From positions 14,322,001-14,386,000 of the forward strand of contig NC_082718.1 of assembly GCF_030144855.1 (NCBI RefSeq): a DNA stretch of 64,000 nt. The letters are read 5' to 3'. Below the pieces are notes generated by a model. The model was not told the origin of the DNA and searched no databases. It worked only from the letters and a program-made list of their open reading frames with translations. The position numbers and the translations under genes were made by a program. Source of the DNA: Hypanus sabinus (Eukaryota). This document shows positions 22,987-29,189 of the stretch, one piece after another (the stretch's first letter is position 1; every line of letters begins with the position of its first letter).

Positions 22987-23057
22987 TCAGTGATATTTGT
23001 AGGCGCAGACATAGTACAGACGAGCATTGCAATTAATATCAAACCAAGTACTGGAAC
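22987..23057 (-). CDS. Secreted C-type lectin, exon 6 (last coding)
   Basis: Acceptor ttttctctgttcttag; phase 1; (G)SSTWFDINCNARLYYVCAYKYH*, the CTLD terminal W-x-D-x-x-C-x7-C. Confidence 0.93.
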
Positions 23058-24156
23058 CTAAGAACAGAGAAAATGAATCCAACATTTACCAAGATGTAGA
23101 TCAGCAAATTATTATCAATTTTGGAAATCTGAAGGAGATGCAGGAAATACTCAGTAGGTCAGGCAGTAGGTGTAGAGAGAACAACAGGAAGGTCATTAAC
23201 AGAAACATTATCTCTATTTCACTCTTCACAGATGCTGCCTCACCTGCTGAGTGTTTCCAGCATTTTCTGTTGAATCTAAATGTTTCCTCATTTTGAGTCA
23301 GTGTCTGTGGGCTGTGAATTTTCCCTGATCTTGATCCATGAGTTTGATGTGTAAATAAAGGGAGTCACTTCCTGTTGTGATCCATGTGCACTCTGAGTCT
23401 GTGTTGCTGAAATCTGACACCTCACAACATTCACTGGGCGTTTGAGCTGTTCCAGGCCAATATGCCTGGCTCACCCTGGGCTGGAACTCACTGTGTGAAC
23501 CGGACACTGTTACTGTCCCATTAAAGATAAACTGAACCCTTGCTCTTTCATGGATATTCAAATGGAAGCAGAGTCCGGAATCTTGAGAGATGGAACTTCA
23601 GTGACAGATCACTTGGGGAATAATTCTGCAGTGGATTGGTTGGTTCGGAATACCACATGGAGTTATGCAGAAGATAAACAATATGTTTCTGCTTTCATAC
23701 TCTATTCAGTCAGAACTTTTGTTCCACTTCTATGATCTTCTTTAACTGCAGTGTCGTACTGAGGGTTCCTCAGAACCTGATGTTACAACCCTTGTGTGAT
23801 TCTCCACCTGCACAGTTACACTCAGCTGATCCTGAATAAGTATATTCAATGTAAAATATTAACTCTGTTGTTCTCTCCATAGATACTGCCTGACCTGATG
23901 AGTACTTTGTGAAAATGCTGCTTTTATCTCAGGTTTCCAGCATTGTCTGCTTTTTTTCATTTTCATACACTGTCTGTTCCCCTGATCCTGGCGTTACATC
24001 CCATTTACCCTCCTCTAACTGCTGGGCAATGAGTTTAGTTCTGCAAAGCACTGTACTCATGGGGTTTATTCAGTCCCTCTGAGTAAAGACCAGCATATTT
24101 TGACAATATCCTGTTGAATGCCATGTCAAAAATCAAAGGAACTAAAATATACTTAC

Positions 24157-24265
24157 CGCTGTTAGTGTACGTACAGAGTTGTCTACGTTTAGGATCCAGA
24201 GGTCTTCCTTCAGCCCAGTTCATGTATCTGATTGAAGTTTCATCACTCCACAAGAAATTCCCATT
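24157..24265 (-). CDS. Secreted C-type lectin, exon 5
   Basis: ctccacag / gtaagt; 109 nt; NGNFLWSDETSIRYMNWAEGRPLDPKRRQLCTYTNS. Confidence 0.94.
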
Positions 24266-25065
24266 CTGTGGAGTATAAATCGGTGATTATTTCTGTAGGA
24301 ACACTGAGTAACCTGGCATTTATTGGTACAGGGCAGAGATGGACATGATCGTGAGTGAGACCAGAATACAAGCAACCGGTTCAAACCAGACAGTGAATGA
24401 GATTTTAAATGATTGACTGAGAGTGTGGAGGAAATCTTGTGGAAGTAACAGAATCCTCAGAATGAAAGAAATCAGATCTGAGAGTGAAGGTCACGGACCT
24501 GGAATAATGCCAACTCAGAAAATGAGGGAAAAGGTAGCCATTGAACATTACCACAAACTAGATGGTGCCTGGCCTGTTGAATCCCTCCAGCATTTTGTGT
24601 GTGAACGTAAACACAAAATCTGATCTCTCAAAGAAAGGTGGTTAAATAATTGAGAAAGGACTCAGTGGCACTGGTCAGGCCAGCATTTATTGTCTTTCCC
24701 TGATCACCCTCTGACCATTTCAGAGGGCAGGTAAGAGTCACACATTGATGGATTCTGGAGTCACAGTGAGGCCAGACTGGGGAAGGATGACAGATTCCTC
24801 ACCCTGTAGAACCTGATGAGTTTTTACAACAGTCTAGTGGTTTCATTGTCACCATTACTGATGGTAACTATTTTCCTCCAATTTACTGCATTTCGTTTAC
24901 TTAAATCCAAAATTCCATGGCTGCTGGGATGGGATTCAAACTTGTGTCCCTGGATCACTAGGATACACCCAAAAACAACCATTTCACTGTCTCCCCCCTG
25001 TTACTCTGCAGGACATCAGGTAAAATTCTAACTGTGGTGGCAATGCAATGTCATTGCTAGTTTAC

Positions 25066-25206
25066 CTTGCAGAAGTCCTTGAAGCCAATCCAAACTGCTC
25101 GCGAACCTCTGGTCACCCGTCTCACCACCTTGGAAATGAACTCGTTGTGCTCACATGAAGTCACAGAAGCCAGCTGTCCATAATGTTTCTCTCTGTTGCA
25201 GGACAT
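25066..25206 (-). CDS. Secreted C-type lectin, exon 4
   Basis: ttttttaaag / gtaaac; 141 nt; MSCNREKHYGQLASVTSCEHNEFISKVVRRVTRGSRAVWIGFKDFCK (LAS and WIG motifs). Confidence 0.94.
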
Positions 25207-25399
25207 CTTTAAAAAATATATATAATTGATGGGTTGATGAGAATCAGCATTTTACATCTTTCCACAGGGCCCTCAATAAATTGTCCGACCTGATGTTGGA
25301 AATTCTGCAACTTTGTTCCTGAGATGCAGTGTTCATCTTCTTCAGGCTCTTTGGTGTCAAAACCAGCTCTGTGTTAACTCCTGGATGTGGAGTTTCCCC

Positions 25400-26373: not shown

Positions 26374-27429
26374 CTTTCATTTAAAATGGAATTAAGAGTT
26401 AAATCAAGTGAAATAATTGAAGCACCATTCCCAGATAGACACCACACCAGAAACTTAAGGGAGCTATAGAAGTTGTCCAATGGTCTTTGCCCATTGCATA
26501 GTGTCAGAGAGCTGAGGGATTTCTGTTGACACCCTTGTCCTTGTTTACAATGAGGACGGGGGCTAAACCTGGCAACTAGAGGTCACAGTGAGACATTGGT
26601 GGTGGGGAAATAGTTCTGATGGATGGAAAGAATTAGTATTTAGAGTTTGGAAGTTATTCAAGGAATTGTATCTGATGAACAATTAACTTTATGGGGTCTT
26701 TAATCAAGGTGTCAGGAGTGTATATTAGTTTTAGAAAATAAAGATGTTAACAAAATGCTTGAGAAAGGACATTATGGCTGCTTCAAAAGAAGAGTAAATG
26801 TTGTTAGATACTTGAGAAACAACTTTATACAACAGTGATTTTATTTAACTAAGAAGGTGATGGGTGTGGGGAACTGTCTTCCTGATTGGATATAGAGACA
26901 GAAACCCTCATCACATTAAACAGAACTTCAACATTGAGATGTATCATTGAGGAATTGTGACCAACTGCGCAATGGACATGGTGTGAGATGGGTTATACTG
27001 ACTTTCCACTGACACCAACACAATGGGCCAAGGGGGTTACCTCTCAGCCATAAATTTCCTCTGACCCTGTGAGAGTGGATTGATGGTGCACTGTCTCCAT
27101 GGTGAGTGTGTCCTTCCTCAGGTACAGAGACAAAAATACACACTCTGAATGGGTCTCCCTCAGACCAATTAAAGTATCAGCCAACCTACTCCAGCTTTCC
27201 TGCAATTATAGCCGCTCAACTCTTGGCTTCCTTATTGTTCACTCTCTCTGTATGAAACTCTCCACAGTTCAGGAACCCCCACACTGAGATCCCTCTTCTC
27301 AACAGCATTTCCTGTTTTCCTAACGTGTAAGCTACCCTTTTCACTGAGCAAAGTTCATAATCTCACTGTTTCCCATGATATTCTCCATCTGCTACATTCT
27401 TGCCTATTTGTGGAAGAATTTATTTTATT

Positions 27430-27712
27430 TGTAGAGACAGTGCAGAATAAACCCTTCTGACCCTTCAAACCACACTGCTTAGCAAAGCTCAGCAACCCCT
27501 GATGTAACATTAACGCAATCACGGGACAATTTACAATGGTCTATTAACCTACTAGCCAATGCATCTTTGGACTGTGGGAAGAAACCGGAGCACCCAGAGA
27601 AACTCACACGTTCCATGGGGAGGATGTACTAACTCCTGACAAAGGACAACAGGATTGAACTCCATCTCTGACACCCTGAGTCATAACAGTGTTGTGCTAA
27701 CTGCTCTGCTAT
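27430..27712 (-). mobile_element. V-SINE (HE1-like) in lectin intron 2
   Basis: 'tgggaagaaaccggagcacccagagaaactcacacg..ggggaggatgtactaactcc' is the reverse complement of the V-SINE central domain. Confidence 0.75.
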
Positions 27713-27974
27713 TCTTATTGAAATAAATAGAACATTTGAGAGCAACTTTTACAAATAAAACATAGTTCATAAAGGTAAGTTAAGGAAACCAAAATTTTGA
27801 GAACAATCACGTGGGACAGACAAACTATTTTATTATTCCTCAACATCATGGGTATCAAGTTCACAACATCCAGAGCATTAGACCAGTGCCTGTAGAACCT
27901 TCTACTCTGCATCTCCTATCTTCCTCACATATAGTCACATAGTCTCTGACTCACCTTCCATCTCAATAGCTCAG

Positions 27975-28965
27975 AGATGAATATAGGACAATACAGCACA
28001 TGAACAGGCTCCTTGGCCACAAAGTTATGCCAAATGAGCTACAAAGTAAATCAAAACCTCCCAGAGACTAATCCCTCCTACCTGCACAATGTCCTTGTGG
28101 CTCAATCTTCCTCACATTCATGTGTCTATCTAAATATCTCTTCAAAGCCTCTGATTAATTTGTCTCTGCCACCATACCAGGCTTCGTATTCCAGGCACCC
28201 ACCACTTTCTGAGTAAAAAACTTACTCCTCACATCCCCTCCAAACTTATCCCCTCTCACCTTCAATGCATGTCATGAGAGGCTGGACAAACTTGACTTGT
28301 TTTCTTAGGAGTGGTGGAGGCTGAGGGGAGATGTTGGGTAACAGGTACTCCCTGTCCACTCAGTCTACACACTTCATAATCTTATCAGATCTCCTATCAG
28401 TTTCAACCACTCCAAAGAGAACAACCCAATTTGTTCAACCTCTCATGATAGCACATGCCCTCTAAACCAGGAGGCATCCTGATAAACCTCTTCTGCACCC
28501 TCTGTGAAGCCTCAACATCCTTCCTACTGTGAGGTGACCATAACTGTATGCTATACTCCAGATGTGGCCAACACAGAGTTTTATAAAGTTTCAACATAAC
28601 CTCTTGATTGGTGAATTGCCTCCTTGTAATTTCCTAATCAAGTGCAAAACGTTAATGTGTATCTGGGTTAAAATCCATCTGCCATTTCTTTGCCCATATC
28701 TACAAAGGATCTATATTACATTGTATTCTTTTCTAGCCTTCTGCATTATCCCCACTCCATTAATCTTGGTATTGTTCACAAACTTATTAACCGAACCATC
28801 TACATTTTCATCCAGGCCATTTATGGACATCACAAACAGCAGAGGTCCCAACACAGATCCCTGCAAAACTCCACAAGTTACAGGCCTGCAGCTTGAATAA
28901 CTTCCTTCAACCATGACCCTCTGTCTTTTATGTGCAAGCCAGTTCTGAATCGTAACAGCCAATTC
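27975..28965 (-). mobile_element. CR1 3' fragment in lectin intron 2
   Basis: 'QGSVLGPLLF', 'LYKTLCWPHLEYSIQLWSPH..RVQKRFIRM'. Confidence 0.85.
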
Positions 28966-29134
28966 GCCATGTCCCTATGCATTTTAAGTATCCCAGACAG
29001 GAGAAATTTCCTATCACTTCCCATCCAGCCCCAATGTCCACAAATTCCCATGTCCCACTGTCCCAACACAGTGCCTGTACATTCACTCCTCATAGATATA
29101 TATTTATAAAGCTCCTAGAATCAATGGACCTTAC

Positions 29135-29189
29135 CTGCCACATCACTGACAAACAGTGTGGTCACCACCAAAACCCACATCAGCATCAT
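29135..29189 (-). CDS. Secreted C-type lectin, exon 2 coding part (signal peptide)
   Basis: Exon starts at 29205 after ttttcttgtgtttcag; ATG at 29189; MMLMWVLVVTTLFVSDVA + G, donor CAG/gtaagg, phase 1 matches exon 3. Spliced CDS is 525 nt = 174 aa + stop. Confidence 0.92.

Follow-up and report, generated by a model that had tools for sequence, protein, structure and literature searches.

A cationic C-type lectin-like gene within a batoid lectin array: a candidate antimicrobial protein of the stingray Hypanus sabinus

Antimicrobial proteins built on a cationic C-type lectin-like domain (CTLD) are already known. Ovocleidin-17 (OC-17) is described as cationic, with an isoelectric point (pI) of 11.6, and as bactericidal (PMC9363672); REG3A is reported to be inhibited by just three acidic residues (PMC2643518), and REG3 is reported to require the EPN motif in loop 1 in connection with peptidoglycan binding (PMC12293564, PMC12530498) and to carry ERN or ETN in loop 2 (PMC12293564). 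Herein, we describe a gene of the stingray Hypanus sabinus located in a stretch of 64,000 nucleotides (contig NC_082718.1, designated C31, C31:14,322,001-14,386,000; the window hereafter refers to this whole stretch). The gene encodes a protein of 174 residues, for which we propose, with roughly even confidence, the role of a cationic, calcium-independent epithelial antimicrobial CTLD protein that is likely secreted and would bind anionic microbial surfaces. Relative to the open-access literature searched, it is the context that is new: about 50 lectin copies that differ in their sugar motifs form an array in the ray, one cationic branch of this array evolves fast, and the array's position corresponds to the locus of the eggshell lectins. 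No account of the ray array or of its eggshell-lectin synteny was found in the open-access literature.

Gene structure, product and splicing in related rays

The gene comprises five coding exons on the minus strand (Table 1), and all four intervening introns are of the GT-AG type. The spliced coding sequence of 525 nt, with intron phases of 1, 0, 0 and 1, encodes 174 residues and has a single terminal stop, the introns falling after residues 68, 115 and 151 within the CTLD protein. The product was identical over 174/174 residues to XP_059842846.1/XP_059842850.1 of H. sabinus ('snaclec B6-like'); the gene is therefore already predicted by RefSeq, and its snake-toxin name is misleading, such 'snaclec-like' names being similarity labels. 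The coordinates, the splice sites and the RefSeq identity all agreed with the five in-frame exons that a first-pass annotation of this DNA had assembled.

Splicing was assessed in eight public sequencing runs of related rays, which are presumed to be RNA, carry no tissue label and differ from the window in many letters. In three of the eight, contigs joined the exons across introns at the exact expected lengths, namely 1099 nt (runs X1, X2 and X7), 800 nt (X1 and X2), 1018 nt (X2) and 2761 nt (X1, X2 and X7), and all four exon junctions predicted by the first-pass annotation were thus seen in related-ray contigs. Its non-coding first exon also fits the GT and AG sites, and X2 and X7 both show, at 29207, a (CT)n loose end of the kind expected for splicing to an exon ending at 29283. 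The other runs (X9 and X10-X13) showed no exon-boundary joints and little or no exon cover, which says nothing on silence of the gene. X7 and X1, which share one species label, were roughly ten-thousand-fold apart in the depth of the exon contigs, which is a poor measure of expression level or tissue. A processed copy was considered as the source of the joined contigs and rejected, no intronless close copy being found in the genome; single-exon matches elsewhere in the genome were 24-36% identical to the query.

A likely signal peptide (residues 1-18), predicted from the hydrophobic N-terminus, is followed by a segment of four acidic residues (D/E) and two Arg within residues 19-38 (net -2), and residues 39-174 contain 21 K/R versus 12 D/E (net +9, pI 9.2), which confirmed on recounting the charges assigned earlier. 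Among the nine cysteines, six occupy the expected CTLD places and would pair canonically as C41/C54, C71/C169 and C146/C161, the others being C57, C86 and C114. None of the calcium- and sugar-binding motifs EPN, QPD and WND was present in the 174-residue protein, in which G-R-P replaces EPN/QPD and WFD replaces WND. N-glycan sequons were found at N22, within the pro-segment, and at N59, and the exon 4 region matched Pfam Lectin_C with an E value of 2e-4.

An AlphaFold2 model built from a 71-row alignment (mean pLDDT 83; 87-98 by block from residue 41, below 50 for residues 1-32) suggested that the domain is a compact CTLD. A preceding 43-row model (pLDDT 57), which matched snaclecs at a root-mean-square deviation (rmsd) of about 9, had the long loop unfolded and was discarded in its favor. 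In structural comparison, lithostathine (top, Z 23.1), rattlesnake lectin and herring antifreeze protein were tied at Z 22-23 (rmsd 1.3-1.8), and REG3A, struthiocalcin and ovocleidin-17 followed at Z 20-21 (REG3A, Z 20.4-20.9, rmsd 2.0-2.2 over 131 residues); such near-equal scores across lectin groups mean that the fold assigns no family. The listed matches of this model are all compact CTLDs, and domain-swapped families could lie outside the list. Identity in the structural alignments was 23-25% to ovocleidin-17 and struthiocalcin, 28% to snake lectins, and 30-31% to REG3A. The best single-domain matches of the family profile were rattlesnake lectin (96.7 bits) and BJcuL (94 bits), and the fold match to snake galactose-binding lectins reached a template modeling (TM) score of 0.90-0.91 of the target. 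Snaclecs possess a shortened long loop that leads to a domain-swapped heterodimer. In the ray protein, the W132-C146 spacing is that of the canonical paralogues, and the alignments pair 133 residues with 133 of rattlesnake lectin and 132 with 121 of aggretin beta, the canonical spacing indicating that the snaclec loop shortening is absent.

A cationic clade in a batoid lectin array

The window gene belongs to a tandem array at C31:11.459-14.628 Mb (about 3.2 Mb), where the third coding exon was located in 50 separate places; this count stands for at least 50, as two protein searches scored 150 out of 192 and 150 out of 269 candidates, respectively. The encoded proteins have a single CTLD and a pro-segment and vary in their sugar motif (EPN, QPD, EPS); many also carry a dibasic convertase-like site, and several copies contain stops in the second coding exon. 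Elsewhere in the genome, two small clusters of intronless CTLDs at C19:170.42-170.50 Mb and C29:65.26-65.44 Mb, 27-36% identical to the queries, represent a different lectin group.

Of 50 batoid proteins, 43 were aligned, seven fragments or fused models being left out. An EPN/QPD-type tripeptide (EPN, QPD, EPS and kin) was found in 35 of the 43, together with WND in 29 of these 35 and a domain net charge of -16 to +1, so that these paralogues resemble typical calcium-dependent lectins that differ from one another in sugar preference. The other eight, including the product of the window gene, formed a clade (support 100/100) on a long stem with net charges of +3 to +9. Neither an EPN/QPD-type tripeptide nor WND occurs in any of the eight; they share the extra C86 beside C114, seven have the odd C57, and all have K/R (Arg in seven) at position -3, three residues before the first canonical Cys, and a pro-segment of net charge 0 to -4 with a sequon inside. 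When eight non-batoid outgroups were added and five more poor batoid models dropped, the cationic clade was nested inside the batoid family (family node 86/77, with long branches in play). Given this nesting, the cationic state is most likely derived and would go back to a sugar-binding ancestor in the array. One snake lectin also joined the batoid family (98/86) on a very long branch. A family member of the skate Rhinoraja longicauda that lacks a sugar motif, has EEE-T-R in its pro-segment and reaches a net charge of +24 (pI of about 11) would by charge be a stronger antimicrobial candidate; it fell outside the stingray cationic clade, although a single-clade constraint was not rejected by the approximately unbiased test (p-AU 0.3), and its separate origin is possible.

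The median identity to the other paralogues is highest in the signal peptide (74%) and lowest in the long-loop exon (31%). The cationic paralogue at C31:13.515-13.528 Mb (RefSeq 'REG4-like') is 68% identical to the window gene in protein and about 93% in non-coding sequence. Between the two, the exons differ at 85/525 positions (16.2%) and the aligned non-coding sequence at 508/6908 (7.4%), a 2.2-fold higher divergence of the exons (Fisher p 9e-11). We read this faster change of exons than of introns as typical of gene families that serve in defence or venom.

Some copies of the array lie in near-identical blocks. A second copy of the window gene, at C31:13,895,530-13,901,732 and thus 449.5 kb off, has the same exon sequences and an identity of 99.79% over 10 kb; as several neighbouring copies are repeated at this 450-kb spacing too, the block either was duplicated recently or is an artefact of haplotypes. 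Orthologues were found in Hemitrygon akajei (three genes, 92-95% identical) and Mobula (66-74%), those of Mobula hypostoma and M. birostris being intact. The family relatives found in the databases belong to stingrays, devil rays, sawfish and skates, and two database searches of limited reach returned no shark member. A 40-column profile of the pro-segment, compared with 1.84 billion representatives, likewise gave no shark among its 15 matches, although the profile is short and sharks are still possible; these matches included 11 named batoid proteins (skate models among them), one JGI protein and two low-complexity-looking sequences. The matches in the ESM Atlas were generic Lectin_C clusters only.

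The loss of the sugar site, the charge and the odd C57 in seven of the eight clade members would also fit a protein-binding CTLD directed at the host, which might bind a host receptor, a glycosaminoglycan or a plasma protein, possibly as a disulfide-linked dimer, and modulate immunity or clotting; a skin C-type lectin of the shark Heterodontus reportedly induces coagulation (cited in PMC10707392). We regard such a host-directed ligand as improbable, because exons changing faster than introns and recent duplication, as in the three Hemitrygon copies (92-95%), would better fit an external, changing target.

The same accelerated exon change, together with the snake galactose-binding venom lectins among the nearest single-domain structures, could be taken to favor a role in the venom of the spine epithelium, with platelets or membranes as targets in the manner of the snake lectins. 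In marine dasyatid spine tissue, a stronger expression of 'true venom lectin' is reported, from samples with no replicates, whereas venom-lectin matches in the freshwater dataset of the same source amounted to 0.18-0.25 transcripts per million (PMC8781517), and lectins are listed among the Tox-Prot matches in Potamotrygon (PMC4768133). The clade is, however, intact in both Mobula species, its family extends to skates and sawfish, and the snaclec loop shortening is absent. Devil and manta rays, skates and sawfish are not known to have a working venomous spine. The stingray venom role raised by the first-pass annotation is quite unlikely in view of these intact orthologues.

Candidate activity and the N-terminal segment

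To return to the antimicrobial reading, a sugar-binding ancestor in the array would have lost its calcium and sugar motifs and gained a basic surface on helix 2 and the long loop. The secreted barrier protein would then bind anionic microbial walls or membranes and kill or agglutinate by charge, in the manner described for ovocleidin-17 (PMC9363672). C86 and C114 would form a further disulfide, with C57 either free or inter-chain. More tentatively, and at less than even confidence, the 20-residue N-terminal segment may damp the activity until a trypsin-like protease removes it by cleavage at R38, a REG3-like design that would have been reached independently. In REG3 lectins, trypsin triggers an oligomer that forms a pore and kills Gram-positive bacteria. 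In the structural alignment, R38/G39 coincided with the R37/I38 trypsin site of REG3A, and in this respect the position of the REG3-like cleavage site put forward in the first-pass annotation was borne out. The basic residue at -3 and the segment of net 0 to -4 in all eight clade members likewise speak for such a control, given that so few acidic residues inhibit REG3A.

Several observations weigh against these proposals. Arg at -3 is not confined to the clade, being present in 19 of the 35 paralogues that are non-cationic as well, and it is on non-cationic skate proteins that pro-segments are most acidic (-5 and -6); both speak against a REG3-like control. The charges of pro-segment and domain were correlated (rho -0.55, n = 43; -0.48, n = 35), but five independent tree pairs gave no support and were uninformative. 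As judged from these comparisons, the pro-segment is a feature inherited across the family rather than one tied to the cationic domain in particular. A dibasic KR/RR site occurs in 17 of the 43 proteins and in none of the cationic clade, which suggests that convertase trimming would be the usual processing in this lectin family. The killing by REG3A is reported to need peptidoglycan recognition, the basic residues by its cleavage site being dispensable for it (PMC2643518), and the window protein, in which none of EPN, ERN and ETN occurs, has no known substitute for EPN. The net charge of +9 is moderate. The paralogue-pair ratio of non-synonymous to synonymous substitution (dN/dS) of 1.25 does not differ significantly from 1 in the upward direction (p 0.53), and even synonymous sites are more diverged than the introns (p 0.03), so that homogenisation of the introns could contribute to the exon/intron contrast. 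Finally, the sequenced runs are unlabelled, and the epithelial site and the antimicrobial activity are predictions.

Should the antimicrobial reading be correct, the protein would add a candidate barrier defence in a group that is reported to be without MBL and ficolin (PMC6795676). The acidic sugar-binding paralogues and the cationic clade would also provide a natural series from lectin to charge-driven antimicrobial protein, in which it could be asked whether pro-segment control evolved twice.

Genomic neighbourhood and comparison with described lectins

The legend of an OC17/XCA synteny figure names LMF2, NCAPH2, TYMP, ODF3B, CPT1B and CHKB (PMC8144736). On C31, SCO2 was located at 15.127 Mb (best PDB match, human SCO2), NCAPH2 at 15.173-15.179 Mb, and a compact gene of the LMF family, taken to be LMF2 on account of its size and location, at 15.188-15.191 Mb, i.e., 0.5-0.56 Mb past the last lectin of the array, which ends at 14.63 Mb. 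From human gene order, we take the six legend genes to flank XCA rather than REG4. TYMP (at 0.41 Mb) and a choline kinase gene (A or B, at 0.23 Mb) lie on the same contig, 11 Mb from the array in the opposite direction, and no carnitine acyltransferase was found on C31 in a search that represents a floor. Four candidate neighbourhoods were tested in the 4-Gb genome, and one of them lying within 0.6 Mb would be rare by chance. On the basis of this synteny with the published legend genes, the array is likely orthologous to the OC-17/XCA locus.

It is conceivable, though we consider it rather doubtful, that the ray array and OC-17/XCA descend from one lectin locus beside SCO2-NCAPH2-LMF2 in the jawed-vertebrate ancestor, that cationic antimicrobial proteins arose from it repeatedly (OC-17, the stingray clade and perhaps the +24 skate protein), and that the REG3-style activation in stingrays is independent. 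The published accounts call the eggshell-lectin locus specific to birds and reptiles (PMC8144736, PMC9363672), and in one of them the OC17/XCA lectins are said to have arisen in sauropsids and to be missing at that locus from mammals and amphibians (PMC8144736). If the orthology is true, the locus would instead date to early jawed vertebrates and would not be a sauropsid eggshell invention.

The proximity of the array (0.5 Mb) to SCO2, NCAPH2 and LMF2, together with TYMP and a choline kinase gene elsewhere on the contig, parallels OC17/XCA (PMC8144736) and bears on a further alternative, in which the product, like OC-17/XCA, is a reproductive-tract or matrix protein of oviduct, uterus or mineralising tissue, its basic face binding anionic matrix or mineral with or without embryo protection. 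The type I/II genes of duck and pigeon are reported to be uterus-specific, those of duck having five exons (PMC8505442). Nevertheless, ovocleidin-17 and struthiocalcin were less identical to the ray protein than snake lectins and REG3A were, and neither was among the best 60 of 114 family-profile matches; by these ranks, XCA is not singled out as the nearest kin. Rays make no calcite shell. We thus judge a matrix role to be unlikely.

The cartilaginous-fish equivalent of REG3 inferred in the first-pass annotation fared differently in its two parts: a secreted-type single-CTLD protein with a cationic domain was retained, and the equivalence by descent was not, given the lack of EPN, the other neighbours and the nesting in a batoid array. 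The match of the intron positions to those of REG likewise stood, but the same positions are described in groups VII and XII and in antifreeze-like lectins (PMC514892), and the layout is therefore not diagnostic of REG. That a true REG3 (or REG4) orthologue was kept in cartilaginous fish is consistent with this layout, with R38 on the trypsin site of REG3A and with lithostathine as the top structural match, tied with others within 1 in Z; it is nonetheless highly improbable, as the protein has no EPN, is nested among canonical batoid lectins, and has none of the expected REG neighbours. HMGCS was detected only on C25, and alpha-catenin/vinculin-family genes were detected on C17, C33, C40 and C41 and not on C31, in a stricter search that gives a floor. 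CTNNA2 is the neighbour of mammalian REG1/3. The REG4 neighbours (HMGCS2/PHGDH/NOTCH2), tested by HMGCS and PHGDH, were not beside the array, the PHGDH search of the genome giving no match. As for PRG2, of which P2RX3 is a neighbour, C31 carries P2X genes at 80 and 91 Mb, a long way from the array.

The features of the gene are collected in Table 1. Identity to the other matching paralogue loci is 74-90% over the 566 nt that precede the first coding donor, and a motif scan of 1.2 kb upstream found no STAT, NF-kB or C/EBP consensus.

Table 1. Features of the cationic lectin-like gene (positions in the window)
Feature	Position	Strand	Basis
TATA-like box, predicted promoter; CCAAT box near 29414	29353..29358	-	motif scan
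Non-coding exon 1; start approximate, GA repeat at end	29283..29330	-	GT donor, AG acceptor; (CT)n loose end 29207
First intron, 77 nt	29282-29206	-	GT donor/AG acceptor
Exon 2: 5' untranslated region and predicted signal-peptide coding (29189-29135), ATG 29189, residues 1-18	29135..29205	-	joint 26372/29134 in runs X1, X2, X7
Exon 3: pro-segment and CTLD start (C41, C54, unpaired-looking C57)	26225..26373	-	splice sites, contig joints
Candidate pro-segment, residues 19-38, net -2, sequon N22, R38 then G-P-C	26315..26373	-	translation, model, structural alignment
Exon 4: basic cluster in helix 2; WIGF, C71, C86, C114	25066..25206	-	splice sites, Pfam Lectin_C
Exon 5: long loop with G-R-P, basic PKRR, C146	24157..24265	-	splice sites, alignment
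Exon 6, coding part: WFD, C161, C169, stop	22987..23057	-	splice sites, contig joints
AATAAA polyadenylation signal, predicted	22866..22871	-	motif scan

Several repeats lie elsewhere in the window. A direct duplication of about 2.5 kb composed of LINE-like fragments (43332-45810 / 48691-51124) is 96% identical, and another (38123-38833 / 47023-47745) 92%; an 18-bp tandem repeat of seven copies lies at 43149-43277, and a TC-rich minisatellite of 82-84 bp at 46542-47024 adjoins a run of N at 46317-46537. The open frames at 2774-4513 and 32102-32999 on the plus strand and at 5073-5819 and 9456-11197 on the minus strand resemble remnants of long terminal repeat retrotransposons, hAT-type transposases and CR1-type LINEs.

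Among the described systems, PRG2 (eosinophil major basic protein) of group XII resembles the ray protein in having a cationic CTLD behind an acidic N-terminal segment and the same intron positions. Group XII is, however, defined by a long acidic neck and a glycine variant of WIGL (PMC514892), in contrast to the 20-residue segment of net -2 and the WIGF of the ray protein. The snake galactose-binding lectins and snaclecs provide the best single-domain profile and fold matches, and one snake lectin joins the batoid family in the tree, but the ray protein lacks QPD and WND, has a pro-segment and does not show the snaclec loop shortening. With REG3A/REG3G it shares the intron positions, the three canonical disulfides, the Arg three residues before the first Cys and acidic residues in the N-terminal segment; it differs from them in the lack of EPN and ERN/ETN, a pro-segment of 20 residues with a glycan sequon as opposed to 11 residues, three extra cysteines, other genomic neighbours and an origin inside a calcium-dependent lectin array. 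OC-17/XCA differ in being one or two genes as opposed to at least 50 exon-3 copies in the ray, in their 23-25% identity, in the calcite shell, and in the pro-segment, for which the ray profile matched only batoid proteins among its named matches. They nevertheless share with the ray gene a secreted single CTLD, five coding exons and a locus near LMF2/NCAPH2 with TYMP and choline kinase, and OC-17 itself is cationic and bactericidal.

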